Source: Candidatus Desantisbacteria bacterium CG1_02_49_89 (GTDB taxonomy: Bacteria > Desantisbacteria > UBA1551). From it: 47,550 nucleotides of DNA. Shown piece by piece: positions 1,217 to 17,652 of this stretch. The notes below the pieces were generated by a model. That model was not told the DNA's origin. It worked only from the letters and a program-made list of their open reading frames with translations, and did not search any database. Location of the stretch: assembly GCA_001871075.1 (NCBI GenBank), contig MNUP01000028.1:1-47550 (forward strand). Direction: 5' to 3'. Numbering within the stretch: the first letter of the stretch is position 1; every line of letters begins with the position of its first letter. Made by a program: the position numbers and the translations under genes.

Positions 1217-1297
1217 ATCAAAAATCCCCCTCACTCCCCCTTTCTGAAAGGGGGATGAAAGGATTAAAAGATATTGTTCTTTACGGGAGGTACTATA

Positions 1298-4200
1298 ATG
1301 AAGTATCAGATATTTATGACACAAGCGGTCATACTGGCAGTATGTGTGGGGGGGTGTATCATGAAACAGGTTGAGGGTAATGCTGCCCAGCCGGATCAAA
1401 CAGCAACCCGGTCAGACGCGACCGTGGCATACTGGAAGTTTGACGGGGACCTTAAAGATTCTTCAGGCAGGGGGCATGATCTCAAGGCGGCGGGCGCGAA
1501 GTTCGGTCCCGGGCATTCAGGGCAGGCGCTGAAGACCGGCTTTGAGGGGTCGGTGCTGACCAGCTCAGACCTTCAGCTGGCCCCCGGGTTCAGGATAGAA
1601 TGCTGGGTCTGCTTCGAGCGCCACTCTTCCGGCTGGCCCTCGTTCGTCAAAAAGAACACCGAATACATACTGCGCCTGGACCCGGCTGAGTATGGCGGGC
1701 ATTTTTCGTTCTTCGTGTACCTTGACGGGTGGGAGCCGGGGGTGTCGTCCAAAGTGAAGGCGGAGCCCGGAACCTGGTACCATATCATCGCGGAGTGGGA
1801 CGGGTTCAACTCCACGCTTGAGGTTAACGGCGAGAAAACAAGCGTTAAGCGCACTGGTTCGCCCAGGGCAGGCCGTTCCCCGCTGGAGGTCTGCTCGCTG
1901 GACGGGATGTTAGACGAGGTGCGCATAGAGAACATGATGCTTCCGAGGATTAAAATGCTTTACGCGGCAGCAGGCGGCCTGCCATTCTTTTCAGGGACCG
2001 CGAAGCCCGGGCAGGACCCTGTGGTGGGGAACTGGAAGTTCGACGGGGACCTGCGAGACGCTTCAAGCCAGGGCCACGAAATTACCACGAAGGACGCGAG
2101 TTTCGGCCCGGGGCATTCAGGCCAGGCGCTGCAAGTCGGTACCGAGGGATCGGTGCCGAGCAGCCCTGACCTGCAGATGGCGCCCGGTCTGAAAATAGAC
2201 TGCTGGGTCTTCTTCGAAAAGCACTCGCCGGGTTTTCCCGCGTTCGTGATCAAGGAACGCGAATACCAGCTGCGCGTGGACCCTGCGCCGCCCAAGGCAA
2301 GCGGGCTGTTCTCGTTTTACGTGTTTTTAAACGGGTGGGAGCCGAAGGTGTCGTCCACTTTTAAGCCGGAACCCGGCAACTGGTACCACCTTGTGGCGCA
2401 GTGGGACGGGTTCAATGCCACGCTTGAAGTTAACGGCGAGAAAACAAGCGTCCAGCGCCTGGGAATGCCAAGGCCCACCAACAACCCTCTTAAGATCGGC
2501 GCGCTGGACGGGATGATAGACGAACTGCGCATCGAGAACCCGATGTTTCCCGCGATGCAGAAATACCTCGCGGAGGCGGCCGAAGCCCCGCAGCGCGGCA
2601 GCGGGAGCCAGGACCACTTCGGGAAAGGGGCTGGCTGGCCAGGCTGGACAGGGATGTACGGCGCGCGCGTCGCGGCTTCAGGCGATAAGCTTGAAATAAC
2701 CCTGCCTGATTCCAACGCGATGGCGATCAACCCCGCTTTTAACCTGGACCTTAACCAGTACCGGTATGTGTGCTGCGATATTTCCTCCCCGGTGCCCGTG
2801 ATGCTTATATTCATCACGGATGCCGGGTGCGGCACCGCGTACCTGCCCGCAACCCAGGCGTCGCGCACATCCGTGGCTGACCTCAGTTCCAATCCGAGCT
2901 GGAGGGGAAAATTGAAGCTGCTTGCCCTGCTTGCCCCGGGCGCGGGTTCCCGCGGCATACAGATGGAGAACCTGTGGGTATCCGGAAAACCCGAGGGCAA
3001 GCCGTACCTGCAGGTGCAGCGCATAGTCTGGGACCACGCCATACTCAGCATCGGCAAGGAGGAGAAGGTAAGCGCGCTTGTTGAGGCGCGCGGCAGCGAG
3101 GGCCTGGAGGTCAGGGACGCGACCGCCTCTATTATTCTGCCGAAGGGCATTAAGTGCGCCGGCGACAAAACGCGCGAGCTGGGCACTCTGCCCACAGGCG
3201 CAAAAAAGACGGTGGAGTGGACTGTGATCGCGGATACAGAGACCAGCGGCAAGGTGACGGTCGTGATGAAGGCGCCTGACTGCGCGCAGGCATCGAAGCG
3301 CGGCTTTGTGTTCGCCGGCTCATTCACGCAGCTGTTCCCGGCAGTGAAAAATATCGCAACGACATACTATATCGACAGCGTGAACGGCCTGAACGGCAAT
3401 CCCGGCACTTCCCCTGATTCCCCGTGGAAGGACTTCACGAACATCAACGGCAAAACCCTGGGGGCCGGGGACAGGCTCCTTATAAAACGCGGCAGCGTCA
3501 TCAACCAGGAACTGCGGGTCTCGGCCAAAGGCGCGAAGGATAACTGGGCGGAGATCGGGGCCTACGGCACAGGGACGCGGCCCACGATACGGCGTAACTG
3601 GCACATTTCAGACCGCTGCGTCCTTATCACAGACCCGGATTATTTGTGGGTGCGCGGCCTTTACGTGACCTGCGCCGCGAGCGGTATATACGTGAGCTAC
3701 TCGCAGCCCAACCACGCGGGGCTGTTCATAGACGACTGCATCGCGTCCCACATCGAGGGGCGGTACAGCGGGTACCTTAACAGCACAGGAATACCTGAGT
3801 GGCGCGACATTCCGTGGCTGGACCCGGAGGGGTACTGCGGCATCATGGTGGGAGGCAGTTCAGCGAAGGATATCACCTTCAGCAACTGCGAGATGTTCCA
3901 TACGTCCTCCGCGTTCCGCATCAAGGGAGAGCGGGTGACGCTGGACAGGATGTTCGCGCACAGCTGCTACGTGCACAACACCTGCCCGCACCCCTACCTG
4001 GTAGACACCAGGAAATCAATGATGAAGAACTGCGTGCTGAACGCGTCAGGCGGGCACGCCAGCCGCGGGACCATGGGAATAATGCTGGGCGGCATGTACG
4101 GGATGATACTCTTTAACAATACCATCCGCAACATGCCGGACTCGCTCACCTGGGACCAGGGGGGGGTTGATTTCGAGTCGGGCGGCAACTGCTGCCTGAT

Positions 4201-5323
4201 AGACCATTGCACCTTCGAGAACAACGCGGGAGCGGCGATCGAGGTGCTGGGCCTGCAAAGCCCGCAGGCAAAGAACGTGGAGATACGCAACTCGCGTTTC
4301 ATCAAGGATAACTGGGTGAAGAAGAACTGGGGGCCGGCTGAGATCTATATCTGGGAATCAGCAGGCAAGAATTCGGACCCCAATATCGTCTGCTCCGACG
4401 GCACGATCCACGGCAACGGGTACGTCCTGGTCCCGGGAGTCGCGTTCTACGCGAACAAGGCGGAAGCGCTGACCAGCTGGAGGCTTTTTGACAACGCCCA
4501 GTACCAGACCGCTGAGGAGCTGCGCAAGGCTATGCCGCTTAACGACCCGCCGGATGTTGATGCGGGGGATGCTGTATACTCGGACAAGCTTACGTTGCAG
4601 CTGGCAGGTTCGGTAAAGGACGACGGCAGGCCTGCAGGCGCGCGCCTGAAGATACAGTGGGAGGTGCTTGAAGGCCCCGCTTCCGCGGAAGTGTCATTTG
4701 AAAATGAGGCATCTTCGACAACCAAAGCAACATTCGCCAAGCCAGGCGATTACCTTTTGCGGCTGGTCGGGGATGACAGCGAGCTGTGGACCAGCGACAT
4801 GGTAGCGGTGCACGTGCTGCCCAAGGGTGCGTCCGCGGCAAAAGCGTGGGAATTCAACCGCCAGCTGGACAAGGAGGGCTGGACCGAGGAAAACCTGGGC
4901 ACCAGGGACCGCAAGGAAGGGACAAAGGACTACGAAGTGACCAAGCCGGTCAAGTACGTTTCCGGCGGGTACTACATTGTCTGCGTTGAGAAAAGCACCA
5001 ACGCCTGCCTGCTTTCACCCGAAGATCTGAGCCTGGATATTTCAAAGCACAAGACCATCACAGTGCGGTTCCATAACCACACGCCCGCGGCAAGCATGCG
5101 TTTCTCCTTTACGACCGAGGCAAGCCCTGACTGGAACGAAGCCAACGGGCAGTTTTTCGAGGTGACACCCAACGACAACGGGCCCCGCGAGTACGCGGCG
5201 GACATGTCAAAGGCGCCCGGATGGAAAGGGAAACTTAAACAGCTGCGGTTCGACTTTGCCACAGGCGCCGCGCTTACAGGGACATGCCGCATTGACTACG
5301 TTCGGATAGACAGCTCTAATTAA
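1298..5323 (+). CDS. Large secreted or lipoprotein multidomain protein: two LamG domains, CBM-like module, Ig-like domain, right-handed beta-helix, PKD-like domain, C-terminal CBM-like module
   Basis: GGAGG SD before ATG 1298, hydrophobic N-terminus ending VGGC, two AYWKFDG..DSSG.GH / GMLDEVRI LamG units, TYYIDSVNGLNGNPGTSPDSPWK beta-helix start, PPDVDAG PKD start. Confidence 0.75.
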   Translation: MKYQIFMTQAVILAVCVGGCIMKQVEGNAAQPDQTATRSDATVAYWKFDGDLKDSSGRGHDLKAAGAKFGPGHSGQALKTGFEGSVLTSSDLQLAPGFRIECWVCFERHSSGWPSFVKKNTEYILRLDPAEYGGHFSFFVYLDGWEPGVSSKVKAEPGTWYHIIAEWDGFNSTLEVNGEKTSVKRTGSPRAGRSPLEVCSLDGMLDEVRIENMMLPRIKMLYAAAGGLPFFSGTAKPGQDPVVGNWKFDGDLRDASSQGHEITTKDASFGPGHSGQALQVGTEGSVPSSPDLQMAPGLKIDCWVFFEKHSPGFPAFVIKEREYQLRVDPAPPKASGLFSFYVFLNGWEPKVSSTFKPEPGNWYHLVAQWDGFNATLEVNGEKTSVQRLGMPRPTNNPLKIGALDGMIDELRIENPMFPAMQKYLAEAAEAPQRGSGSQDHFGKGAGWPGWTGMYGARVAASGDKLEITLPDSNAMAINPAFNLDLNQYRYVCCDISSPVPVMLIFITDAGCGTAYLPATQASRTSVADLSSNPSWRGKLKLLALLAPGAGSRGIQMENLWVSGKPEGKPYLQVQRIVWDHAILSIGKEEKVSALVEARGSEGLEVRDATASIILPKGIKCAGDKTRELGTLPTGAKKTVEWTVIADTETSGKVTVVMKAPDCAQASKRGFVFAGSFTQLFPAVKNIATTYYIDSVNGLNGNPGTSPDSPWKDFTNINGKTLGAGDRLLIKRGSVINQELRVSAKGAKDNWAEIGAYGTGTRPTIRRNWHISDRCVLITDPDYLWVRGLYVTCAASGIYVSYSQPNHAGLFIDDCIASHIEGRYSGYLNSTGIPEWRDIPWLDPEGYCGIMVGGSSAKDITFSNCEMFHTSSAFRIKGERVTLDRMFAHSCYVHNTCPHPYLVDTRKSMMKNCVLNASGGHASRGTMGIMLGGMYGMILFNNTIRNMPDSLTWDQGGVDFESGGNCCLIDHCTFENNAGAAIEVLGLQSPQAKNVEIRNSRFIKDNWVKKNWGPAEIYIWESAGKNSDPNIVCSDGTIHGNGYVLVPGVAFYANKAEALTSWRLFDNAQYQTAEELRKAMPLNDPPDVDAGDAVYSDKLTLQLAGSVKDDGRPAGARLKIQWEVLEGPASAEVSFENEASSTTKATFAKPGDYLLRLVGDDSELWTSDMVAVHVLPKGASAAKAWEFNRQLDKEGWTEENLGTRDRKEGTKDYEVTKPVKYVSGGYYIVCVEKSTNACLLSPEDLSLDISKHKTITVRFHNHTPAASMRFSFTTEASPDWNEANGQFFEVTPNDNGPREYAADMSKAPGWKGKLKQLRFDFATGAALTGTCRIDYVRIDSSN

Positions 5324-5377
5324 AAATAGTTAAAGGTTGAAGGTTGAAAGTTAAAGGTTGAAGGCGTGAAACTGCTA

Positions 5378-5511
5378 CCCCTATAGCCCCTTCGGGGCTT
5401 AACATAGGGGCCTGCGAGCCAGAGCCCTGCCAGCTCCAAAGGAGCTCAACGGCAGGACCTACGAATCAGAACGGAGCTGATGATTCTCCGGCTGGGTAGA
5501 TGGCTCTTCGG
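5378..5511 (+). repeat. Second copy of the 134-nt nested mini-element
   Basis: 131/134 identical to 243-376; similarity stops at the element ends. Confidence 0.9.
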
Positions 5512-5576
5512 AAATAAAGGGGACGGGTTCATTTATTTGCCTGTAAGATGATCTTTGCTTCGCGCAAATGATGATT

Positions 5577-5630
5577 ACCCCTGCAGTCCCGATAAAAAGA
5601 ATCGGGACAAGACGCAGGGGTCCTTTAGGG
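5577..5630 (+). repeat. 54-nt palindromic insert (ACCCCTGC...GCAGGGGT)
   Basis: Removal gives GATTACAGTGATTATT, identical to positions 3-18. Confidence 0.7.
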
Positions 5631-5904
5631 ACAGTGATTATTAAATAATGATTACGGTGTTAAAACTTTCTTCACAGGGATTCAGCGGGATTCAAACTAC
5701 AGGCATGTGTCCCGCCCAGCAAACGTGGCGGGCAGGCATGAGTGAAACCGCTTATTGCGGCAAACACTCGACATTTATTTGTGAGCAACAAGGTTCTGCG
5801 AAGCAGGTTCTTATGGCATATCGCATATGGCGTATCGTTTAAGACAGATACTGAATCCCAGATACCGAATGAAGGGAAATTAAAAGTAAAGAAGGAGGTA
5901 TAAA

Positions 5905-6267
5905 ATGCCTGAAGACGAAGAACCAAGAGCCGTAGAGTTCAGTGATATGGGGATTTTGCTGACAAACATCGAAAACGTTCCGGGCAAGACGATCACAAAG
6001 CATTTCGGGCTTGTGGCAGGCAGCACGGTGCGCGCGAAACATATCGGCAGGGATATCGCAGCGTCCTTTAAGAACATTGTCGGCGGCGAGCTGAAGGGTT
6101 ATACAGAGCTATTGCAGGAATCCCGCAAGCAGGCGACCCTGCGGATGATACAGCAGGCAAAGCAGCTGGGGGCGAACGCCGTGGTGAACGTGAGGTTTTC
6201 CACATCTTCGATCACGCAGGGCGCAGCGGAGCTCTACGTTTACGGAACGGCTGTCAGTGTGGAATAA
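5905..6267 (+). CDS. YbjQ (UPF0145) family protein
   Basis: GLVAGSTVRAKHIGRDI, GGELKGYTELL.ESR and LGANAVVNVRF motifs; AAGGAGG SD. Confidence 0.9.
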   Translation: MPEDEEPRAVEFSDMGILLTNIENVPGKTITKHFGLVAGSTVRAKHIGRDIAASFKNIVGGELKGYTELLQESRKQATLRMIQQAKQLGANAVVNVRFSTSSITQGAAELYVYGTAVSVE

Positions 6268-6276
6268 GGGGGCATT

Positions 6277-6738
6277 ATGGATATTTCCAACGTTGTCAAC
6301 TTAATAATATTCATTTTTCTCGTCGCCCTCGGATATTTCGCGGGGACCGCAGCCGAGAAGAAGCATTATAGATCCATAAAAGAACGCGAGAAAAAATTCC
6401 TTGGCATGCCCGCAGTGACGATAGAAAAAGCAGAGGATGAGTCCGGGATCGCGGACGCCCGCCTTGTCTGCGGCAGCGTGGTAGTATCCGTGGATTATTA
6501 CAAGCGTTTTCTCGCGGCCCTGCGCAACATCGCGGGCGGCGAGGTAATGTCCTACGAGACCCTTCTTGACAGGGGGCGCAGGGAAGCGGTGCTGCGGATG
6601 AAAGAAAGCGCGGCCGGCGCGGACATGATAGTGAACATGCGCCTGGAAACAGCCACTATAAGCGGGAAGGCGAACAGAAAAGCCGTGGGAACCGTGGAGG
6701 TCATGGCCTACGGCACTGCCATAACGCTGAAGAGGTAG
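6277..6738 (+). CDS. Membrane-anchored YbjQ-family paralogue
   Basis: N-terminal TM helix, GGEVMSYETLLDRGRREA and AYGTA motifs. Confidence 0.85.
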   Translation: MDISNVVNLIIFIFLVALGYFAGTAAEKKHYRSIKEREKKFLGMPAVTIEKAEDESGIADARLVCGSVVVSVDYYKRFLAALRNIAGGEVMSYETLLDRGRREAVLRMKESAAGADMIVNMRLETATISGKANRKAVGTVEVMAYGTAITLKR

Positions 6739-6739
6739 A

Positions 6740-7576
6740 GTGAAATACGAGCCGAAAGAAACGGGCGGGAACGTTAATGTGTCTCCCCGTTCTCCAATAA
6801 AGGAATTTTTTATCCTGGTTGGCGGCATACTGGGTGTAGCGCTGGCAGTTTATGTGATACTTGGGATCGCGGCTGAGTTAATAGTGTCGCGATTGCCGCC
6901 GGATTTTGAAACAAAGCTGGGCGCGGTATATTCAAGGGCGTACCCCGAAGCAAAACAGAGGACGGAAGCCGAAACATGCCTGCAGAAAATACTGGACAGG
7001 CTGCAGGAAGGCCTTCCCCCCGGCCAGCGGGGGTACAGGGCCCGCATAGTCCAGAGCGGCAAGGCCAATGCCTTCGCGGTGCCCGGCAAAAATATTGTAG
7101 TTTATTCGCAGCTGCTGAAAGAGGCCGGTTCAGAGAACGAGATCGCAATGGTGCTGGCCCATGAAATAGGGCATTTTGTCAACAGGGACCATTTGAAGGT
7201 CCTTGGAAGAAGGATAGTATTGCTTTCTATGTCAATGGCGGTTCTGGGCGGCGACAATGCCGTCACGGGAATGCTGCAGAATTCGCTTTTTGCCGCTGAA
7301 TCGAAATTTTCCCAGAAACAGGAAAGGTTCGCGGATGAGTTCGGGCTGCGGCTGCTGAACGCGACATACGGCCACGCGGCGGGGGCGGTTGATTTTTTTG
7401 AAAGGCAGGAAACTAAGCAAAAATACCCGAACTTCGCATTTTTCTTTGCAGGCCACCCTTCACACAAGGACCGCATAAATATTTTAAAGAAGTTAATAAA
7501 TGAAAGGGGATACAAGATCAAAGATAAAATACCCGTGGACAGCAAGATAAAAGCAGCTGGGGTCAGGTCTTTTTAA
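6740..7576 (+). CDS. M48 family zinc metallopeptidase
   Basis: NAFAVPG, HEIGH (HExxH), FSQKQERFAD and HPS motifs, N-terminal TM segment. Confidence 0.9.
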   Translation: MKYEPKETGGNVNVSPRSPIKEFFILVGGILGVALAVYVILGIAAELIVSRLPPDFETKLGAVYSRAYPEAKQRTEAETCLQKILDRLQEGLPPGQRGYRARIVQSGKANAFAVPGKNIVVYSQLLKEAGSENEIAMVLAHEIGHFVNRDHLKVLGRRIVLLSMSMAVLGGDNAVTGMLQNSLFAAESKFSQKQERFADEFGLRLLNATYGHAAGAVDFFERQETKQKYPNFAFFFAGHPSHKDRINILKKLINERGYKIKDKIPVDSKIKAAGVRSF

Positions 7577-7644
7577 GGCAGTCATGAGTTATGTGTCATG
7601 AGTCATGGGTGAGAGATTGAAAGTGAGAAAAGGAGGTGACCAAT

Positions 7645-7695
7645 ATGTGGAATAAGAAGAGCAGGAAGGAAAACAGAGGCGGGAGAGGAAGATAG
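7645..7695 (+). CDS. Putative 16-aa basic micropeptide MWNKKSRKENRGGRGR
   Basis: AAGGAGGTGA SD 5 nt before ATG; paralogue at 16333-16383 with synonymous differences. Confidence 0.6.
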   Translation: MWNKKSRKENRGGRGR

Positions 7696-7974
7696 CTCGA
7701 AGGCAGCCATTAATATTTAGAAATGCGTCTAATAGTTCAATTGTCCAATAGTCCAGTAGTGCAAGGAATTCGTGTGAATTAGTGAAAATTCGTGGTTATA
7801 AAGGCAGTCATTAGTCATTTGTTAATGCAGAATAAAAAATGCAGACGGATGGTTTAATGCTGTCCATTGTACATAGCAGGCATAAACAGCGGCGGGCAGG
7901 CATTCCACTTTCCCTGAAATAATTCAATACTTAAAATCCAGTCCATAGTTTTTAAGTTTGTATTTGGAGGCATC

Positions 7975-8628
7975 ATGATAAAAAAAGGAAATATTATCAG
8001 GGGCGGAATTTTTGTATTGATGATCTTTTTGCTTGCGGGAGCGGGTACGGCCGTGTCTCAGGAATTTCCTTTACAGGTCCTTTCCGCGACTCCGCGGGGC
8101 AGCGTGGAAGGATACGGCGAATTCAACGAGATCACGGTGATCTTTAACCAGCCGATGGTCCCCCTGGCAAAATTACCTGAAGGCCTCGGTTCAGGGCCGC
8201 TGGTGCTGGAGCCCATTATCAAAGGTAAATACAGATGGATGGGAACAAGCACGCTTGCCTTTACTCCTTCTGAAACCTTTCCTCTTTGCACTGGCTTTAA
8301 GGCTACGGTTCCAGCCGGTACAAAGTCTATGTCCGGACAGGTTTTAAAACAGGACTATATCTGGAGCTTCGAAACCCTGAGGCCAAAGGTGGTTCAACAC
8401 TCTCCGCATCATGGCCAGCAATGGGTAAGGCTGGACCAGGAAATATGGGTGCTTTTCAACCAGGCAATTGTTCCCAGGCTTGTATGGGAAAACGCGGTCC
8501 TCGAGAAGTCTAATTCTTCTCCAGCGGATATCCAGCAGGGCAGGAACATAATGACCGTATCGTGCAGGAATCCATCCAATGAAGAATGGAAAAAAGCTGG
8601 CAATGGATCCCTTCCCCGGACAGGATAG
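7975..8628 (+). CDS. Alpha-2-macroglobulin N-terminal part (signal peptide and Ig-like domains), ending at a frameshift
   Basis: GGAGG SD, signal peptide, ITVIFNQPM and GKYRWMGTSTLAFTP Ig-like motifs; the second Ig domain continues in the -1 frame. Confidence 0.75.
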   Translation: MIKKGNIIRGGIFVLMIFLLAGAGTAVSQEFPLQVLSATPRGSVEGYGEFNEITVIFNQPMVPLAKLPEGLGSGPLVLEPIIKGKYRWMGTSTLAFTPSETFPLCTGFKATVPAGTKSMSGQVLKQDYIWSFETLRPKVVQHSPHHGQQWVRLDQEIWVLFNQAIVPRLVWENAVLEKSNSSPADIQQGRNIMTVSCRNPSNEEWKKAGNGSLPRTG

Positions 8629-11600
8629 CGATCATCAGGCATAAAGAGCAGTTTGAGATAGGCGCCGTTTATAGAATGGTATTAAAAAAGGGATTGCCCG
8701 GAACGGCCGGAAATTTAGGCATGGCAGATACCTATGCTTTTTCTTTTTCAACCGTTAATGTTTTTAAATACACGGGCAGCAGGATAATGCACACGACCCC
8801 CGACCTTATCTGGGACCTGCGGCCGAAATTTTATTTCAGCAATCCCGTAAGGATGAAGGATTTTGTAGTGCATTTCCACTCTGAGCCGAAAATTAAATTC
8901 GCGGAATGGTGCAAGGAGGGCACCCATGCGAGCGCTGAGATAGTACCGGATTTCGAACTCCAGGCAGCCAACACTTATACCATTATCCTGGATCCCGACC
9001 TTCAGGACGAATTCGGCAACCGGCTGGGAGAAGAAGTGAAGATCCTTTTAATTGTAGGAAACTGGCTGCCGCGCGCGATCATCACGCCGGGCTTCGGTAT
9101 CATTGAATCATATATGAAACACCAGTATCCGCTTTTCTGCATGAATATCGGCAGGATCGGCCTGAAGATGAAAGGGATGGCGCCGGACAGCATTATCCCG
9201 TATTTCAACTATGGCTACGGATGGGTCTATACAAGGCCGCTTCCAGTTCCCGAGGCATTCTGGTCCGTGAACAGGATATGGGATATAAAGTCACCCCTGA
9301 ACAAAGGCTATACTTTGCCGGTAGAAACAGACGAGGCAGCAAACCTGGATAAACAGAGCACAGTCCTGCTGCTACTGGACTGCCTTGAAGAGAATTTAAG
9401 TGCCAATAATTGGTATTTCGGAAGCAGGCGTTACCAGAGCGCCATGCTTCAGATAACGGGCATGGGTATCAGCGCAAAGTTTTCTCCCTACAGTAATCTG
9501 GTATTCGTAACGAGATTGCTGGATTCCGTTCCTCTGCCAAAGGCAAAGGTAGAAATAAGGGATAAGGAAAACCGCGTTCTGTGGACCGGGCTCACCGACA
9601 ACAACGGGGTCTGCATAACGCCGGGCTGGAAAAAACTGGGATTGAGCATAGATCCGGAAAATCCCTGGCAGAAACCGATGCAGTGGGTATTCGTCTATCG
9701 CGGCATAAACTTTGCCTTTATTAATTCTGAGTGGGAATCGGGCATCTTTCCGTGGAGGTTCCATGTAAACTATGATTGGTACAACGCTCCGCAGGACATG
9801 GCAGGATACGTGTATACGGAAAAGGGGATCTACCGCCCGGGGGAAACCGTCCACATAAAATGCTGCGTGCGCGAGAAGGAGGACAGGGCCTGGAACATAC
9901 CTTCCGGGTGCACCATGGTAATGAGGATAACGGATTCAAGGGGAGAGGAATTCTTAAAGAGGAAGGTAAACCTTTCCGGTTTCGGCTCTTTCTCGGAGGA
10001 CGTAAAGATCCCGCAGGCGGCAGCGCTCGGTTACTACACTATCAAGATAAGATTCCCGAAGGAAAAGCCCGGTGAGCAGGAAAAACCCTGGGATGACTGG
10101 CGCGAAGCGAACTATGTAGCGGGGACCTTCAGGGTCGCGGAATACAGGCCCGCGCAGTTCGAGGTTAACGCGAGGGTTTCAAAGGACAGCTACGTGTTCG
10201 GAGACACCGCGAGCGGGAAAATAGAAGGAAGATACCTGTTCGGCGCGTCCATGTCGGGCTGTAACGTCAGGTGGAATATATTCAGGAACCGTTCTTATTA
10301 CGAACCGCCCGGGCACAAAGGCTATTATTTCCAGGGAAACTGGTGGACTGACGAGGGATCAGGGGCGCGGGAAGGACTTATTACGCAGGGTTCCGGGGTG
10401 CTGGACAGCCTTGGCACGGTTGACGTGAACTTCAGGCTTGACGGCAGGAATTACTCCGGGACGGCGCGGTATATGCTGGAAGGAACAGTGCAGGACCTTG
10501 ACCGGCAGCAGATCACGGGCAGGGCAGGCACCACGGTCCACCGCGGGACTTATTACATAGGCGTAAAGCCGTCCTCGACCTTCCTTGAGAAGGGAGATCC
10601 GGTAAAACTCCAGATCATTGCCTGCGACATAAACGGCGAGACTATTGCGGGCAGGGAACTCAGGCTAAACCTGGTCCACAGCGAGTGGTGCTCAACATAC
10701 AGGGCTGAGGTAGGCGGCAGGTACCACTGGGTGACCGAAAAGAAGGATACGATAGAAGACACCAGGTTTATCACCACTGCCCTCATTCCCGCGGAGGTGG
10801 ACCTGAAACCCGATAGTATTGGTTATTATATCGTCCGTGTTGAGGGAAATGACGAGCGGGGTAATCCCGTAAAGTCAGGCTGTTATTTTTATATTACCGG
10901 ATCCGGGTATACTGCCTGGGAGAGGAATAACGACGATATCATTGAACTTGTCGCGGATTCCCAAAAATACAAACCGGGAGACACCGCAAAGGTGCTCGTA
11001 AAGTCACCCTACGAATCCTGCTCCGCGCTTGTCACGCTTGAAAGGGAAGGTATTATTGACAACTGGGTCACGAAACTGTACGGGAGCGCCGACAGGATAG
11101 AGATCAAGCTTACAGAGGACCATCTTCCGAACGTTTTTGTTTCTGTCCTGCTTCTCCAGGGCAGGGCAGGAGAGAAGAAACTCTCGGAAGAAGGCGAAGA
11201 TGTCGGCAAGCCGTCTTTCAAGATAGGATACGCGAATTTACTGGTTGACCCCGGGACGAAGCATCTTCAGATAGACGTAAAGACCAACAGGAAAGATTAC
11301 CGTCCCGGCGACGAGGTAAGGGCCGAGGTGAAGGTAAAAGACGCCCTGGGCAGGGGAATAGAATCCGAAATATCCCTGGCCGCGGTTGACGAGGGAGTGC
11401 TGAGCCTGATAGGATACCGGACGCCTGACCCGTTTCCCGCTTTTTACGGCCCGCGGCCGCTTTCCGTCAAAACCGTGGAAATGCGGGCAGGGATAGTAGG
11501 GCAGAGGAATTACGGCGAGAAGGGCGAGGACAGGGGCGGAGGCGGCGGCCTGGGCATGGCAGGTTTTGATATCAGGAAGAAGTTCGAGGCGTGCGCTTAC

Positions 11601-13688
11601 TGGAACCCGTCCATTATTACCGACGGGTCGGGCAGCGCGGCCGTTAAATTCAGGCTGCCCGATAATCTGACCACCTTCAGGATAATGGCAGTTGCGGGCA
11701 CAAAGGATTCGCTTTTTGGCAGCGGAGACTCAAAGATCAAGACGAACAAGCCGTTGATGCTGAGGCCTGCGTTTCCCAGGTTCGCGCGGCTCGGTGACGA
11801 ATTCGAAGCAGGTGCGGTGGTCCACAACTATACAGGCAAGGGCGGGACGGTAACGCTGGCGGTTTCGGCGGAAGGCATCAAACTGAAAAGCGGAGCGGTG
11901 AGAACCTTTTATCTTGCAAACAACGAAGGCGCAGAGTTCAGGTATCCTTTCGGCGCTGACCGGATAGGCAGGGCTGTTTTTACTTTTAAGGCGGTCCTGG
12001 ATTCTGAAAAGGACGCAGTCAGCATATCCATTCCCCTGAATCTTCCGAAACCTACCGAATCGGTCGGCCTGTTCGGAAGCACGACAGGCGAGCAGAGGGA
12101 GTGGATCGAGATCCCGGAAGACTTCATACCGGGAGTAGGCGGGGTGACCTTTACTGCCGCGTCAACGGCAATGGTCGACCTTGCCAAATGCTCAGAGTAC
12201 CTGTTCAATTATCCTTACGGTTGTCTCGAACAGCGCCTTTCCAGGGTGCTGCCGATGATCTTGTTCGGAAAGGTCGTGGACGCTTTCAAGCTGCCGGGGC
12301 TTGTGGAAAGAGATTATCACCAGGTCATACAGGAAGACCTTAATAAAATGGTGTCTTTCCAGCTCCCGAACGGCGGGATGGCAGCCTGGGTTGACAGCGC
12401 CTATGACAATCCGTATATCTCCGCGTACGCTCTGTTCGCGATGCACAAGGCAAGGCAGGAGGGTTACAGGGTTGACGAAAGAATGATGCAGAAAACCAAA
12501 GATTACCTGATCAACGTTCTCAGGAACAAGGCAAACCGCTCGTATTATCCATACTCACGCGTCTGCTGGAATTACACAGACTGTTTCATACTGCAGGCCC
12601 TGGCAACCTGCGGTATCTACGAGCCTGCTTTAGCTGAATACCTGTATAATTACAGGTCTGAACTTCCCTATTTCGCGCTGGCCATGCTCTGGAAGGCGAT
12701 CGTGATAGGCAAGGGGAACCAGAATATGGCGCAGGTGCTCAGGCAGATGATAGATAACGGAATGAAGATCGACAGCACCACCGCGCATTTTGAGGAGCCG
12801 GACAGGGAAGGCCTTGGATGGGTTTTCCATTCAAACACCCGCACGACCGCGGCGGTCCTGCAGGCATTTCTTGAGATGGATAAGGCCCATCCTGCAGCGG
12901 AGAAAATGGCCAGGTGGCTGCTGCAGGCAAGGAAAAGAGGCGTATGGCGGTCCACGCAGGAGAACCTGTACGTGTTCTGGGCGCTCGCAACTTATTTTGA
13001 AAGGTATGAAAGCGAGACGCCGGATTTCACTGCCGGCATAAAGGTGGAACAGAAGGAAATGCTCTCGGATATTTTTAAGGGCAGGTCCCTTAAAACAAAC
13101 CGCAAAATAATCCCGCTTGAAAATTTCACAAAAGGCAAGACTTTGCCGATGCTGTACACCTGCAAGGGCAAGGGCAGGTTTTACTTCGGGACCTGGCTGA
13201 CCTACGCCCCTAAGAAGGAAATTCCCGCCAAAGACGAGGGTTTTTCCGTCCAGAGGCTGGTTGAAACAATGGATGGAAAACCCGCGGACCTTGCAAAGGT
13301 AAAAGCGGGAACGATGCTCAGGATAAGAATAATAGTATCCACGACGCGGGACAGGAACTACGTTGTGGTTGACGACCCGATCCCCGGCGGATTTGAACCG
13401 GTGGACACCACCCTTAAGACAGAGTCAAGGCTTGAAGGTTTCCAGTCCCGGTCCGAGGACAGGTTCGGCAACCGCCGCTGGTGGGGTTCGTTCAACCGGA
13501 GCGAGCTCTATGACGACAGGGTGGTGATATTTGCCGATTACATGAACGCGGGGGTCCACAACTATTCATACCTCGTAAGGGCGACAACCTACGGCGGGTT
13601 CCGCGCGCCTGCCACCAAGGCAGAGGAGATGTACGCTCCAGAAGTGTTCGGGTATGGAACCGCGTACAACGTGACGATCGTAAAATAA
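8586..13688 (+). CDS. Bacterial alpha-2-macroglobulin (YfhM-like), main part
   Basis: YTEKGIYRPGETVH MG2 motif, Gly-rich bait region, LPDNLTTFRIMA, thioester motif YPYGCLEQ, AEEMYAPEVFG C-terminus; adjacent to pbpC. Confidence 0.93.
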   Translation: MEKSWQWIPSPDRIAIIRHKEQFEIGAVYRMVLKKGLPGTAGNLGMADTYAFSFSTVNVFKYTGSRIMHTTPDLIWDLRPKFYFSNPVRMKDFVVHFHSEPKIKFAEWCKEGTHASAEIVPDFELQAANTYTIILDPDLQDEFGNRLGEEVKILLIVGNWLPRAIITPGFGIIESYMKHQYPLFCMNIGRIGLKMKGMAPDSIIPYFNYGYGWVYTRPLPVPEAFWSVNRIWDIKSPLNKGYTLPVETDEAANLDKQSTVLLLLDCLEENLSANNWYFGSRRYQSAMLQITGMGISAKFSPYSNLVFVTRLLDSVPLPKAKVEIRDKENRVLWTGLTDNNGVCITPGWKKLGLSIDPENPWQKPMQWVFVYRGINFAFINSEWESGIFPWRFHVNYDWYNAPQDMAGYVYTEKGIYRPGETVHIKCCVREKEDRAWNIPSGCTMVMRITDSRGEEFLKRKVNLSGFGSFSEDVKIPQAAALGYYTIKIRFPKEKPGEQEKPWDDWREANYVAGTFRVAEYRPAQFEVNARVSKDSYVFGDTASGKIEGRYLFGASMSGCNVRWNIFRNRSYYEPPGHKGYYFQGNWWTDEGSGAREGLITQGSGVLDSLGTVDVNFRLDGRNYSGTARYMLEGTVQDLDRQQITGRAGTTVHRGTYYIGVKPSSTFLEKGDPVKLQIIACDINGETIAGRELRLNLVHSEWCSTYRAEVGGRYHWVTEKKDTIEDTRFITTALIPAEVDLKPDSIGYYIVRVEGNDERGNPVKSGCYFYITGSGYTAWERNNDDIIELVADSQKYKPGDTAKVLVKSPYESCSALVTLEREGIIDNWVTKLYGSADRIEIKLTEDHLPNVFVSVLLLQGRAGEKKLSEEGEDVGKPSFKIGYANLLVDPGTKHLQIDVKTNRKDYRPGDEVRAEVKVKDALGRGIESEISLAAVDEGVLSLIGYRTPDPFPAFYGPRPLSVKTVEMRAGIVGQRNYGEKGEDRGGGGGLGMAGFDIRKKFEACAYWNPSIITDGSGSAAVKFRLPDNLTTFRIMAVAGTKDSLFGSGDSKIKTNKPLMLRPAFPRFARLGDEFEAGAVVHNYTGKGGTVTLAVSAEGIKLKSGAVRTFYLANNEGAEFRYPFGADRIGRAVFTFKAVLDSEKDAVSISIPLNLPKPTESVGLFGSTTGEQREWIEIPEDFIPGVGGVTFTAASTAMVDLAKCSEYLFNYPYGCLEQRLSRVLPMILFGKVVDAFKLPGLVERDYHQVIQEDLNKMVSFQLPNGGMAAWVDSAYDNPYISAYALFAMHKARQEGYRVDERMMQKTKDYLINVLRNKANRSYYPYSRVCWNYTDCFILQALATCGIYEPALAEYLYNYRSELPYFALAMLWKAIVIGKGNQNMAQVLRQMIDNGMKIDSTTAHFEEPDREGLGWVFHSNTRTTAAVLQAFLEMDKAHPAAEKMARWLLQARKRGVWRSTQENLYVFWALATYFERYESETPDFTAGIKVEQKEMLSDIFKGRSLKTNRKIIPLENFTKGKTLPMLYTCKGKGRFYFGTWLTYAPKKEIPAKDEGFSVQRLVETMDGKPADLAKVKAGTMLRIRIIVSTTRDRNYVVVDDPIPGGFEPVDTTLKTESRLEGFQSRSEDRFGNRRWWGSFNRSELYDDRVVIFADYMNAGVHNYSYLVRATTYGGFRAPATKAEEMYAPEVFGYGTAYNVTIVK

Positions 13689-13727
13689 TTTTAAAAATAA
13701 AAGTCCGGACCGGAACGGAAGGAAGGT

Positions 13728-16163
13728 ATGATCAAAAAAATAGGACGGGCCAAAAAAATATTCATCTTTTCGTCCTGCCTTATAATTGCCGGGGCGGCGG
13801 TGTCTGCCTGGCTGTGGACGTTCATTCCTTTCCCCGGTGAACTGCTGAACCTGCGATCAAAAATATCCCTGCGGATACTTGACCGCAACGGGATCCTGCT
13901 CAGGGAGGTCCTGTCCGACGACAGCGGAAAAGGCCAGTGGGTCGGCCTGGATAGGATCCCGGCGCACATGATAAACGCTTCCGTAGCCGCCGAAGACGCA
14001 AGGTTTTACTCGCACGCAGGGATTGATTTCCTTGCAACTATAAGGGCGGTCATGCAGAACGCGAGTAAACGCAGGATCGTGTCAGGCGGTTCGACCATAA
14101 CGCAGCAGGTAATGCGCAACATATTCCATTTTCCGAGGGATTTGCCGCACAAAGCCCTGGAAGCCTTATATGCAATAAGGCTTGAGCGTTCTCTAAAAAA
14201 GGAAGAGATCGTCGCTCAATACCTTAATTTGGCTCCCTACGGGAACCAGGTCTACGGCATTGAAGCAGCGTCAAGGCTCTATTTCCAGAAACCGGCGTTC
14301 TACCTTTCTCTCGCGGAATGCTGTTTTCTTGCCGCAATTCCCAAATCCCCGGTGGAATTCAATCCTTATTCAAATTTCAAAAGGACAAAAAACCGGCAAA
14401 GGGAGATCCTTTCCAGGATGTATGAAAAGGGTTTCGTTGACAGGGATTCGTTTAAAAGGGCGATAAAAGAGCGGGTAAATATTGTGCCTCCTGAAAAATG
14501 CTTCCGTGCTCCGCATTTTTGCGAATGGGTGCTTTCGCAGCTGAGCGCGGAACAGAAACAGGGCATAAAAACGATCGTGACAAGCCTTGATTACTACATC
14601 CAGAAGGAAGTCGAGGGATTTACCGCGCAGCAGATAAAAACCCTGAAGGACCAGGGCGTTACGAACGGAGCAGTTACGGTTATCGATAACAGAACCGGGG
14701 AAATAATTGCGATGGTCGGTTCGGCTGATTTTTTCAGCCGTTTCATCGGCGGGCAGGTTAATGGCGTGCTTGCTCTCAGGCAGCCGGGTTCAACACTGAA
14801 GCCCTTTACGTACGGGCTTGCCCTGGAATCGGGAATGACACCAGCCAGCATCATACCTGACATCCCCACTTTTTTACAGACCGCAAACGGTAAATTCGCT
14901 CCAGAGAACTATGACAAGAAATACCACGGCCCGGTACGGATGAGAACGGCGCTCTCATGCTCTTATAATGTACCCGCGGTGCGCACGGCGGACAGGATAG
15001 GAATAAATGCGCTGCTGGAAAAATTAAGGGCCGGAGGATTCAAAAGCTTAAATAAGAGCGCGGAATTCTACGGGCCGGGACTTACTCTCGGAAGCGGAGA
15101 AATTACGCTGCTGGAACTGGCTAACGGGTACAGGTCCTTTGCGCTTAATGGCGTGTATTCAGAATACAGGTCCATACTGGGCATGAAGGGACTGCAGGGC
15201 GAAGAGGTCCAATATTTTTCAGACACTGGGACAAGGGTTGTTTTCTCTCCTCAGATAGCATGGGTTGTTACCGACATGATCTCCGACCAGGGCGCGAGGA
15301 TCCCTGCTTTTGGGGAAGGCGGACCGCTTTCCTTCCCGTTCCCATGCGCCTGCAAGACGGGAACCTCCAAGGATTACAGGGATAACTGGACGGTCGGTTT
15401 TACCCCAAGGTATACAATTGGCGTGTGGGTGGGGAATTTTAACGGGGAACCGATGTACAGTGTTTCGGGTGTCACCGGGGCGGCCCCGCTTTTCCACGAG
15501 ATCATGATATTTCTTGAGAGAAATAAGCCGGCGCTTGCTTTCTGCGAACCGGCGGGGATCGTGCACGGCAGGATCTGTCCGCTATCAGGGCTGATCCCGG
15601 GACCCAATTGCCCATACAGTATGGATGAGGTTTTTTTTGACGGAACCCAACCGGGAAGCACCTGCGATTTCCATAGAACCTACAGAATTGATGCGAGGAA
15701 CGAACTGCTTGCAGGAGAGAACTGCCCCGAGGAATATGCGGAAATGAGACTGTATGAAGTCATGCCCCCGGAATTTAAATCCTGGGCAAAAAAAGAAGGT
15801 TATACGTTCCCCCCGACTACCTTATCGCTTCTTGGTCCCGATACCGTTGCCAAGGAATCCTGTTTTAAGGGATCAAAATACCAGCCTGAAAATCTTTCTA
15901 TAGCTTTTCCTGTTGACGAGAGCGTTTTTAAGATCGACCCTATACTGCGGCGCGAGTACCAGGCGATAAAATTTACCGCAACGGTGCCTGAAAAATTCAG
16001 CCAGGTGGTCTGGAAGGTTGACGGGGAGACTATTGCGACCGTCGGGGAACCTTATGCCGCATGGTGGAACCTTACTCCGGGCAGGCATAAAATTGAAGCG
16101 GTGGGAATTGCCGGAAGGAACAAGCCTGCACACAGTTCAGTCAGGATCATTGTCCTGAATTGA
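13728..16163 (+). CDS. pbpC: Penicillin-binding protein 1C
   Basis: EDARFYSH and GGSTITQQ transglycosylase motifs, STLK (SxxK), SYN and KTG transpeptidase motifs, C-terminal BiPBP-like domain; canonical position after A2M. Confidence 0.93.
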   Translation: MIKKIGRAKKIFIFSSCLIIAGAAVSAWLWTFIPFPGELLNLRSKISLRILDRNGILLREVLSDDSGKGQWVGLDRIPAHMINASVAAEDARFYSHAGIDFLATIRAVMQNASKRRIVSGGSTITQQVMRNIFHFPRDLPHKALEALYAIRLERSLKKEEIVAQYLNLAPYGNQVYGIEAASRLYFQKPAFYLSLAECCFLAAIPKSPVEFNPYSNFKRTKNRQREILSRMYEKGFVDRDSFKRAIKERVNIVPPEKCFRAPHFCEWVLSQLSAEQKQGIKTIVTSLDYYIQKEVEGFTAQQIKTLKDQGVTNGAVTVIDNRTGEIIAMVGSADFFSRFIGGQVNGVLALRQPGSTLKPFTYGLALESGMTPASIIPDIPTFLQTANGKFAPENYDKKYHGPVRMRTALSCSYNVPAVRTADRIGINALLEKLRAGGFKSLNKSAEFYGPGLTLGSGEITLLELANGYRSFALNGVYSEYRSILGMKGLQGEEVQYFSDTGTRVVFSPQIAWVVTDMISDQGARIPAFGEGGPLSFPFPCACKTGTSKDYRDNWTVGFTPRYTIGVWVGNFNGEPMYSVSGVTGAAPLFHEIMIFLERNKPALAFCEPAGIVHGRICPLSGLIPGPNCPYSMDEVFFDGTQPGSTCDFHRTYRIDARNELLAGENCPEEYAEMRLYEVMPPEFKSWAKKEGYTFPPTTLSLLGPDTVAKESCFKGSKYQPENLSIAFPVDESVFKIDPILRREYQAIKFTATVPEKFSQVVWKVDGETIATVGEPYAAWWNLTPGRHKIEAVGIAGRNKPAHSSVRIIVLN

Positions 16164-16209
16164 AGCGGTTTAATAGCCGGGGTCAGGTCTTTTAAATACA
16201 GTCATGCGT

Positions 16210-16281
16210 CCCGCCTACGTAAAGACTTAGCAAACCCAAGACTTTTCTATTCGAAGAGGGTTTGCTAATACTACGGCGGGC
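16210..16281 (+). repeat. Nested palindromes CCCGCCTACG...CTACGGCGGG containing the 11-bp IR TTAGCAAACCC/GGGTTTGCTAA
   Basis: Absent from the paralogous segment at 7579-7612. Confidence 0.7.
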
Positions 16282-16332
16282 ATGCATGGGTCATAAGTGT
16301 GAGATTGAAAATGAAAAAAGGAGGTGATCAAT

Positions 16333-16383
16333 ATGGGTAAGAAGAAGAGCAGGAAGGAAAACAGGGGCGGGAGAGGAAGGTAA
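16333..16383 (+). CDS. Putative 16-aa basic micropeptide MGKKKSRKENRGGRGR
   Basis: AAGGAGGTGA SD 5 nt before ATG; 14/16 aa identical to 7645-7695. Confidence 0.6.
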   Translation: MGKKKSRKENRGGRGR

Positions 16384-16591
16384 CTAAAGAAACTGATTGT
16401 TCAAAAAAAGGATTGTTCACTGAAAAAGATGGTTCAACTCAACTGATCGTTCAATACAGGGCAATGGAAAAGGGGACAGGCTACTTATTGCAGTCTATTG
16501 AGTCCAAAATTTAGGTACTAAAAACTGGTGCCAGGTCTTCTGTGAACAGTCCTTACTCAAGACCTGGCACTCAATTCTTGCCTATGTATTA

Positions 16592-16719
16592 TCCCTGTAG
16601 CTCCAATCATCCCTCCTACTTTCTTTCGAAAGTGACAGGGGGGACCTGCGCCCGCCAATATTCGTGGCGGGCTTCGGCACAGGGATCTACGAGTCAGAAC
16701 TGGGTTAATGACTCTCCGA
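16592..16719 (+). repeat. Nested mini-elements (inner unit 16610-16677)
   Basis: Outer TCCCTGT/ACAGGGA plus GAGTCA-N12-TGACTC; inner CCCTCCT/AGGGGGG plus GCCCGCC/GGCGGGC-TTCGG. Confidence 0.8.
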
Positions 16720-16726
16720 GGTTTAA

Positions 16727-17389
16727 ATGAAGAAAGTGATCGTGTTCGCGGTAATTATCGGGATGGCCATAGGTTCCGCGGCTTACGCGGAAAAAATGTA
16801 TGAGGGAGAAGATATCCCGAAATACATATATAACCTTAAGGAAGGAAATTTCGCGATCAAGGTGGATGCGGTCCTGTCACTCGGCAAGATAGGAAAACCG
16901 GCGATACCCGCCCTCCTCGAAACCCTCAAGGATAAAAATGATTTTACGAGGGTAGGTTCGGTCCTCGCACTCGGTGAAATAGGGAGCAGGGAAAATATCA
17001 TGTTCCCCGAGCTGATCCAGTCGGTGGCCGATAAGAGCGAGCTTGTCAGGTGGGCGGCAATAGAGGCGCTCGGCGTGATAGGCCTGGCCGCAAAAGACGC
17101 GCTGCCCGCGGTAACCGCCGCGTTAAAAGATAAAACCGAGCTTGTCAGGTGGGCGGCTGCAGACGTCCTGGACGAAATAAGCACGGACGCGAAATCGTCA
17201 GTGCCGGCGCTGATAGAAGCGCTTAAAGACAGCAATAAAAATGTCAGGGAGAATGCCAGCGAATCCCTCGGAGAAATAGGGGATCGGTCCGCGCTTGAGG
17301 CATTGGATCTTTTGGCAAAGAATGACAGAGAAGAATCCGTGAGGAAATCCGCTGAGACGGCAATAGAAAGGATAAGGTCAAAGAAATAA
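16727..17389 (+). CDS. Secreted HEAT/PBS-lyase repeat protein
   Basis: Signal peptide and repeated PALxxALKD...VRxxAAxALGxIG units. Confidence 0.85.
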   Translation: MKKVIVFAVIIGMAIGSAAYAEKMYEGEDIPKYIYNLKEGNFAIKVDAVLSLGKIGKPAIPALLETLKDKNDFTRVGSVLALGEIGSRENIMFPELIQSVADKSELVRWAAIEALGVIGLAAKDALPAVTAALKDKTELVRWAAADVLDEISTDAKSSVPALIEALKDSNKNVRENASESLGEIGDRSALEALDLLAKNDREESVRKSAETAIERIRSKK

Positions 17390-17652
17390 TTTGAAAAATA
17401 GGGACAGTTGTATCAGTTTAATTATTCTGTTACCTAACAAACTATGATATTTAAATAGTTGTTAGGTAATTTTTTTATCCCTGCAAACGTGCGACGAAAC
17501 GTCGTACCCCGCCAAGGTAATTGGCGGGCGCAGCGCTACATTACTACAAGATTGCTTCGCTACGCCCGCAATGACACGCAAGGCTCCCTCCTGACAAAAT
17601 TGGCGGGTCTTCGAAAAGCCTTGCCCTACGAAAGAATAAATCGGGGGCGGCT

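Follow-up and report, generated by a model that had tools for sequence, protein, structure and literature searches.

A family of 16-codon genes, very likely translated, for a basic RGG peptide in a candidate Desantisbacteria genome

Gene callers do not see open reading frames (ORFs) as short as 16 codons, and selection has been demonstrated for very few of them. Attenuation and ribosome-arrest leader peptides such as pheL, hisL, ermCL and tnaC are well-known very short ORFs, and bTHX, like bS22, bL37 and eL41, is a tiny basic ribosomal protein. RGG and RG-box RNA-binding motifs occur in eukaryotic proteins and in the tails of some bacterial RNA helicases. Here we describe a family of 16-codon small ORFs (sORFs) in a 47,550-nucleotide (nt) stretch of Candidatus Desantisbacteria bacterium CG1_02_49_89 (contig MNUP01000028.1), which from comparison of its members is very likely a family of translated micropeptide genes. 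This stretch, called the window below, is contig C71 of assembly G000, which holds 2.48 Mb in 150 contigs and has a guanine and cytosine (GC) content of 48.9%. Among the tiny basic ribosomal proteins, bS22 has 33 amino acids, and basic residues make up 55-65% of bS22 and eL41 (PMC10085706).

Two members of the family lie in the window. The preliminary description had reported two diverged direct repeats, each ending in such an ORF; both repeats proved real when we read and translated the window, and the ORF coordinates were corrected as follows:
7645-7695, plus strand: sORF1, encodes MWNKKSRKENRGGRGR, stop codon TAG
16333-16383, plus strand: sORF2, encodes MGKKKSRKENRGGRGR, stop codon TAA

A 23-nt core, AAGAAGAGCAGGAAGGAAAACAG, occurs exactly twice in the window and was found 0 times in 100 shuffles. 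Our repeat search aligned 7597-7697 with 16285-16385 at 87% identity over 101 nt (family D9). When the whole assembly was searched, a third copy was found on the minus strand of contig C135; it encodes MGKKKSRKENRGGRGR with other codons and has unrelated flanks. A fourth version came from public metagenome contigs, where a back-translated pattern matched five loci, four of them sequence-identical to G000 over the compared stretches and one a variant. This variant, L011, is a 2.7-kb contig from a different metagenome and encodes MWNKKSRKENRGGRGR. Its large gene shows 85% nucleotide and 84.7% amino-acid identity to window positions 3683-5362, and L011 therefore comes from a related but distinct organism. 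The codons of the four versions are:
Copy 1 (sORF1): ATG TGG AAT AAG AAG AGC AGG AAG GAA AAC AGA GGC GGG AGA GGA AGA TAG
Copy 2 (sORF2): ATG GGT AAG AAG AAG AGC AGG AAG GAA AAC AGG GGC GGG AGA GGA AGG TAA
Copy 3 (C135): ATG GGT AAA AAG AAG AGC AGA AAA GAA AAT AGA GGC GGT AGA GGA AGG TAG
L011 version: ATG TGG AAT AAG AAA AGC AGA AAA GAG AAT AGG GGC GGG AGA GGA AGG TAA

The peptide is rich in lysine and arginine (seven to eight basic residues against one acidic) and contains glycine; RGG and RG motifs are present, and a hydrophobic segment or core is absent. The core KKSRKENRGGRGR is identical in all three genome copies. We found no further divergent paralogues beyond these three by a fuzzy six-frame search that allowed up to four substitutions in 13 amino acids. 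A basic sORF at window position 36088 was rejected as spurious, being antisense to the signal-peptide-coding start of a minus-strand gene. Stop-codon readthrough was also considered and rejected; each copy continues differently past the stop, and a downstream gene lies in the same frame at copy 3 alone.

The coding signature of the family was then assessed. The differences between copies 1 and 2 past codon 3 had been described as silent, and this holds: they fall at codon 11 (AGA/AGG), codon 16 (AGA/AGG) and the stop codon (TAG/TAA). However, the accompanying claim that the flanks diverge more hardly holds for these two copies, whose ORFs are identical at 45 of 51 positions, barely above the value for the roughly 50 nt upstream. 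Because this upstream sequence is nearly as conserved as the ORF, the two-copy argument for coding constraint is weak, and the strong evidence for coding comes from the third and fourth versions.

Among the four versions, eight sites vary in codons 4-16; all eight are third positions and all eight changes are synonymous. With 20-28% of the possible single changes synonymous, the probability of obtaining 8/8 synonymous changes is 2.2 × 10−6 at kappa 1 and 3.2 × 10−5 at kappa 5. The stop codon varies between TAG and TAA yet remains a stop in all versions, and the ATG, the length of 16 codons and the stop are kept in 4/4. Between L011 and copy 2, codons 4-16 are identical in all amino acids, compared with 84.7% for the neighbouring large gene, and have 5/39 nt changes, all synonymous, and codons 2-3 differ at three sites.

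The conservation also has sharp borders. Ungapped identity between non-sister copies is 10-14 of 50 positions from −70 to −21, 15-16 of 20 from −20 to −1, and 9-16 of 58-60 after the stop, so that identity beyond −20 and past the stop is at the random level. Since identity is confined to the stretch from the Shine-Dalgarno (SD) sequence to the stop, the conserved unit is the SD plus the ORF. This unit of about 70 nt is the sole part specific to the sORF family.

As a control, all SD-preceded sORFs of 10-50 codons in G000 were clustered, which gave 17 families with at least three copies. Most of the 16 families with distinct copies of the same length vary evenly over the three codon positions, for example [3,6,4], [11,12,16] and [32,32,28]; in the same control the micropeptide family gave [1,0,8]. 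Codon usage in the sORFs is ordinary, as AGG is the commonest arginine codon in the long ORFs of this genome (50%).

The control bears on the possibility that the unit is untranslated, being either a purine-rich RNA or DNA element (an anti-SD 'sponge' or a protein-binding site) or an ORF that arose by chance in repeated DNA. Nearly all of the tract is purine, several SD-like words are found in it, and the short intergenic repeats of this genome do yield, by chance, 17 multi-copy families of SD-preceded sORFs. However, the repeat-derived control families lack the third-position pattern. Seven of the eight variable sites are A/G changes, and there are no changes among 26 sites at codon positions 1 and 2, all of which are purines that could have been exchanged between A and G; a constraint to keep purines thus does not explain the pattern. 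The retained start, stop and length likewise speak against such an element, and we consider it very improbable. Judged from its substitutions, the ORF is under purifying selection on its amino-acid sequence, so the coding constraint proposed in the preliminary description is borne out by the four versions and by the borders of conservation at SD and stop. We hold it highly probable, on this comparative evidence, that the sORF is a real translated gene.

The ribosome-binding site was compared with the 16S rRNA of the same genome, whose terminus reads ...GGATCACCTCCTTTCT. The initiation regions in the window are:
7629..7644, plus strand: sORF1 initiation region AAAGGAGGTGACCAAT, with an 11-nt complement AAAGGAGGTGA to the 16S 3' tail and 5 nt from the AAGGAGGTGA core to the ATG
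16317..16332, plus strand: sORF2 initiation region AAAGGAGGTGATCAAT, with a 13-nt perfect complement to the 16S 3' tail of the same genome

Both sORFs are directly preceded by AAAGGAGGTGA(C/T)CAAT. The SD of copy 2, AAAGGAGGTGATC, is a 13-nt perfect complement of that 16S tail and the longest anti-SD complementarity in the genome. Its 12-mer core, AAGGAGGTGATC, has two occurrences in 2.48 Mb, and the other one is the rRNA gene. In copy 3 and L011 one A of the SD is replaced by G, a change that would keep the pairing as G-U. The shorter word AGG(A/G)GGTGA is found at 18 places in the genome, three of which are the sORFs, and in a whole-genome search with up to three mismatches the initiation-region word was unique to the three copies. 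The sORF mRNA is purine-rich, and the ORF cannot pair with itself. Rfam gave 0 matches at E ≤ 1 on both strands of 7000-17500. A scan for sigma-70 promoters found nothing upstream of sORF1; near sORF2 there was a single 9/12 match at 16564-16592, which lies downstream and is no better than in shuffles. Together, a clean comparative signature and the strongest ribosome-binding site in the genome mark out one 16-codon ORF.

We next consider how widely the family is distributed. The back-translated pattern was searched in 41 genomes (G000 and 40 others), and matches were found in G000 only. The candidate phylum is represented by two genomes in the reference set searched, and of these G000 alone matched. 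In the second one, G001, which is of the same order and 87% complete, neither a relaxed lysine/arginine pattern with three mismatches nor the peptide gave a match; this search had no positive control and is a weak negative. Two patterns gave 0 and 0 matches in contigs of one genome per species, and the sORF pattern gave 0 matches in viral contigs. At the population level, 24 listed sequencing runs cover positions 7000-16900, all of them DNA from groundwater or aquifer samples. In four of these (X24, X23, X19 and X10) we saw no variant letters in either sORF, under thin (about 3-7x) and patchy cover.

Literature matches for small bacterial RGG peptides held nothing relevant and concern the streptococcal Rgg regulator, and among the matches listed for 'Desantisbacteria' none is on small proteins by its title or abstract opening; neither result is proof that no report is in print. 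As far as these searches reach, the micropeptide gene family is confined to one lineage of the candidate phylum and is undescribed.

What might the peptide do? The reading to which we would give about an even chance is that this is a genuine 16-codon gene family, with three paralogues and one orthologue, whose lysine- and arginine-rich peptide would act in trans. The peptide would be made in large amounts and would act as a polyanion binder, with RNA or the ribosome as its most likely target and DNA as a possible one. Its action may resemble that of the tiny basic ribosomal proteins bS22, bL37 and eL41 without membership of those families, and the extra copies could provide dosage or different expression contexts. 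Taken overall, a trans-acting binder of nucleic acid or ribosome is a tentative proposal from the peptide sequence, somewhat short of an even chance.

The main rival to action in trans is a leader, or upstream ORF, acting in cis, in which translation of the sORF, or stalling by the basic nascent peptide, controls or couples the expression of the co-oriented gene for an exported protein (A2M-pbpC, the HEAT-repeat protein or the secreted protein on C135). In all three genomic copies the sORF lies upstream, on the same strand, of a gene whose product has a signal-peptide-like N-terminus. The stop codon of copy 3 is 6 nt before the next ATG, and its last codons, GGAAGG, could act as the SD of that next gene. 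Arrest peptides are, moreover, likewise conserved at the amino-acid level.

However, several results disagree with a leader. The distance from the sORF to the next gene is 6 nt at C135 (unknown secreted protein), 279 nt at the alpha-2-macroglobulin (A2M) gene and 343 nt at the HEAT-repeat gene, and no sequence or structure past the stop is common to the copies. As for attenuation hairpins, no terminator-like sites were found in 7300-8100 or 16050-16800, and four sequence contexts gave no significant RNA fold against shuffles (z-scores −1.75, −0.14, +0.28 and +1.72). As for a regulatory codon run, the downstream genes are functionally unrelated and none is for amino-acid biosynthesis, and AGG is a major arginine codon rather than a rare one. 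A palindrome and a multi-copy hairpin element lie between sORF2 and the HEAT-repeat gene, and co-orientation at three loci is not statistically meaningful. We therefore prefer action in trans, because the same peptide is kept beside unrelated downstream genes at such different distances, because no downstream structure is common to the copies, and because hairpin and palindromic elements intervene after sORF2. The leader is in our opinion unlikely, with more in its favour than the other alternatives considered here.

Several points nevertheless weigh against the favoured reading. At every copy the gene downstream is read in the same direction and its product starts like a signal peptide, and the stop of copy 3 is not only close to the next ATG but in frame with it, which fits a role as leader or in coupling. 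An SD of 13 nt may detain ribosomes instead of raising output to a maximum. There are only four sequences, from two closely related organisms, and their variable sites are shared among copies in a mosaic pattern; this suggests gene conversion, so that the eight sites may not be eight independent events. The case for both translation and function is one of comparing DNA sequences. The Pfam model for bS22, COX24_C (PF08213), gave 0 matches at E ≤ 0.001 in a six-frame search of the whole genome; this profile, which did match in Corynebacterium glutamicum as a control, has 33 positions and the peptide is about half that. The peptide was, in addition, not found in G001, and such an apparent absence from the phylum's other genome speaks against a core part in the ribosome. 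Both bL36 and bS21 are present in G000, and thus the peptide replaces neither.

A more specific form of the trans-acting proposal, which we think quite improbable, is that the product would be a lineage-specific, 16-residue micro-protein bound to the ribosome or rRNA and made from an mRNA with a 13-nt SD in perfect match to the 16S tail, or else one half of a two-part unit with the adjacent GATNGTTCA array. If true, no smaller protein dedicated to binding nucleic acid would be known from a bacterium. The GATNGTTCA array follows sORF2 in the window:
16395..16453, plus strand: GATNGTTCA array, four units with a period of 16-17 nt

Such arrays occur at three loci in the genome (16395-16453, C135 near 36442 on the minus strand, and C140 at 8749), and two of them abut sORFs. 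An array follows both sORF2 and the L011 sORF and directly precedes sORF3, so that 3/4 versions are accompanied by one. The 58 nt past the sORF2 stop, which hold most of the array, are identical at 57 of 58 positions in L011, compared with 85% for the neighbouring large gene.

The two window copies enclose an A2M-pbpC segment, for which the preliminary description had proposed that the repeats may mark the ends of a cassette. The genes are:
7975..13688, plus strand: alpha-2-macroglobulin (A2M) gene, in two overlapping frames, 7975-8628 and 8586-13688
13728..16163, plus strand: gene for a pbpC-type bifunctional penicillin-binding protein

The identity of both genes was confirmed by their domains (bMG10, MG2, A2M_BRD, A2M, bMG3 and TED for the former; Transgly, Transpeptidase and BiPBP_C for the latter). 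The A2M gene switches frame near an A6 run (tggaaaaaagctgg, about 8588-8601). A contig from an independent run (X10, covering 8161-8753) has the same A2M sequence with 0 differences, and the switch is either a real frameshift (a pseudogene or slippage) or a homopolymer error shared by both.

The L011 contig allows a comparison of this region. It aligns to window positions 3683-5362 and 5511-5663, continues with an FMN-reductase gene that has no orthologue in G000, and becomes homologous again at 16316. The block missing from it, about 5663-16316, holds two YbjQ genes, M48, sORF1, A2M and pbpC. Its right edge coincides with sORF2, and its left edge is about 2 kb upstream of sORF1. L011 carries a single sORF and lacks A2M-pbpC from the syntenic place. 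As the missing block does not run from repeat to repeat, it lends the cassette little support. In the contigs of the four DNA runs mentioned above, no joint skips A2M-pbpC, with the same thin and patchy cover; such contigs show presence, not absence, and so speak neither for nor against a cassette.

These data bear on a further possibility, that the sORF unit is mainly a recombination substrate whose direct copies mark a site where A2M-pbpC integrates or is lost by homologous recombination. This would be compatible with a functional peptide. Two direct repeats of roughly 140-210 nt flank A2M-pbpC, which L011 lacks at this place, and A2M was not found in G001 with the query used. The L011 sORF, moreover, has codons 2-3 (TGG AAT) like copy 1 but agrees with copy 2 at codons 11 and 16, in its stop and in 57 of the 58 nt that follow; a site with one copy would look like this single mosaic sORF. 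However, site −8 of the L011 SD matches copy 2, which makes a 2-1-2 mosaic and not a single crossover, and ahead of the SD, L011 and copy 1 have unrelated sequences (11 of 50 positions identical). The missing block also takes in the two YbjQ genes and M48, the gap is filled by a gene without a G000 orthologue, and the GC content of the segment (0.50-0.56) is not distinct from that of its neighbours. We regard recombination as the main role of the unit as doubtful, and more so than the leader. The simplest account of the two copies on either side of A2M-pbpC is that duplication or recombination at the sORF unit left them there as a by-product.

The remaining sequence around the two sORFs consists of repeats, whose main members are:
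7559..7570, plus strand: GGGGTCAGGTCT motif, overlapping the stop codon of the M48 peptidase gene (6740-7576)
7579..7610, plus strand: tandem heptamer array, GTCATGA-like, about four units
7796..7822, plus strand: second, partial copy of TTWTAAAGGCAGTCATNAGT, between sORF1 and the A2M gene (repeat family D18)
16179..16190, plus strand: GGGGTCAGGTCT motif, beginning 16 nt past the pbpC stop codon
16210..16280, plus strand: palindromic hairpin element (about 70 nt) that interrupts the heptamer region of copy 2; a second copy, inverted, lies on C100 near 19597
16528..16570, no strand assigned: palindrome GTGCCAGGTCTT...AAGACCTGGCAC, between sORF2 and the HEAT-repeat gene (16727-17389), of the GGGGTCAGGTCT motif family (D15)

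The repeat search aligned 7555-7589 with 16175-16209 at 86% (family D15). The GGGGTCAGGTCT motif has two occurrences in the window, against a shuffle mean of 0.12. Copy 2 of the repeat is longer because the hairpin element at 16210-16280, with arms TTAGCAAACCC and GGGTTTGCTAA and outer arms CCCGCC...GGCGGG, is inserted in its heptamer region.

The GGGGTCAGGTCT motif at 7559 belongs, in degenerate form, to the repeat G[GT]G[TC]CAGGTCTT, which recurs across the genome and is often followed by GACAT. The exact pattern has 22 copies in the genome, and GGGGTCAGGTCT has 30 with one mismatch. The repeat often reads ...GGTCTTGACAT and is sometimes a hairpin arm, as at 16528-16570. Its common forms, CTGGGGTCAGGTCTTGACATTTCACT or AAAAAAGGTGTCAGGTCTTGACATGTGACATATC, hold a TTGACA word and a TGTCA/TGACA palindrome, and it could be a promoter-associated or hairpin element. 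Examples are found on C100 (633, 2748 and 8897), on C80 (13789/13846) and in the window at 7559, 16179 and 16528-16570. Heptamer arrays of the CAGTCATGAGT type are found at nine loci. The repeated module of the preliminary description is therefore a mosaic, in which the GGGGTCAGGTCT motif (22-30 copies) and the heptamer arrays are generic intergenic repeats. However conspicuous, a generic repeat context of this kind should not be taken too readily for a mobile cassette.

Other repeats were observed in the same material. Just upstream of the HEAT-repeat gene, 16609-16719 is a hairpin or REP-like multi-copy element with a contig depth of 15-39, compared with about 3-7 elsewhere, and an opposite-strand joint at 16647/16719. 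At least 20 G000 contigs (for example C15, C18, C23, C35, C72, C74, C95, C113 and C150) have a repeat of about 200 nt at their ends. One frame of this repeat reads KSGNNHPLLYPLPSRERGRVRGVGTLEGR.WKVGRFPEQEVTV..., with variation mostly at third codon positions [2,3,14], and the repeat may thus be the coding terminus of some multi-copy element at which the assembly breaks. A 134-nt direct repeat with 98% identity (243-376 and 5378-5511) brackets the gene of a 1349-amino-acid secreted protein (1274-5323), and this gene has an internal duplication with a spacing of about 600 nt (1424-1944 vs 2024-2550).

If the peptide is made, the size range of selected bacterial proteins, leaving aside hydrophobic membrane peptides and leader peptides, would extend further down. 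At 1.9 kDa the peptide would also be a simple synthesisable probe for what a free RGG-type peptide does in a bacterium.

The locus can now be placed beside the known systems. The flanks of sORF1 and sORF2 resemble the STRR heptamers of cyanobacteria and REP-like hairpins, since they hold tandem heptamers and hairpins that recur genome-wide. However, the SD-plus-ORF unit occurs only three times in G000 and has a coding signature, and the repeats are its context. The segment between the copies resembles the bacterial A2M (yfhM)-pbpC pair in having adjacent genes with both domain sets, although the A2M gene is here split into two frames. To our knowledge, flanking by a duplicated micropeptide gene is not a feature of that pair.

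With leader peptides of the pheL, hisL, ermCL and tnaC type, the sORFs share a very short ORF, a strong SD, a position upstream of a co-oriented gene and a conserved peptide. However, no terminator or antiterminator was found at these loci, the distance varies, the downstream genes are unrelated and serve neither biosynthesis nor resistance, and one peptide is found at three unrelated loci. With RGG and RG-box proteins, the peptide shares Arg-Gly-Gly and Arg-Gly repeats in a disordered, basic context. Here, however, the motif is the whole protein rather than the tail of a folded one, and RNA binding would be by analogy.

The 16-residue peptide is shorter than bS22, bL37, eL41 and bTHX. The tiny basic ribosomal proteins bS22, bL37 and eL41 come from very short ORFs that stand alone; about half or more of their residues are basic, and they are lineage-restricted, were missed by annotation and act by binding rRNA (PMC10085706); the sORF product is like them in being free-standing, very short and basic. 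It differs from them and from bTHX in its length of 16 amino acids, in having no sequence relation to them, in its three copies and in not being found in G001. The family is thus of a known kind, a selected bacterial sORF for a basic peptide, and what is new is that no relative of it was found in these searches, together with its very small size, its multi-copy state and its 13-nt SD.

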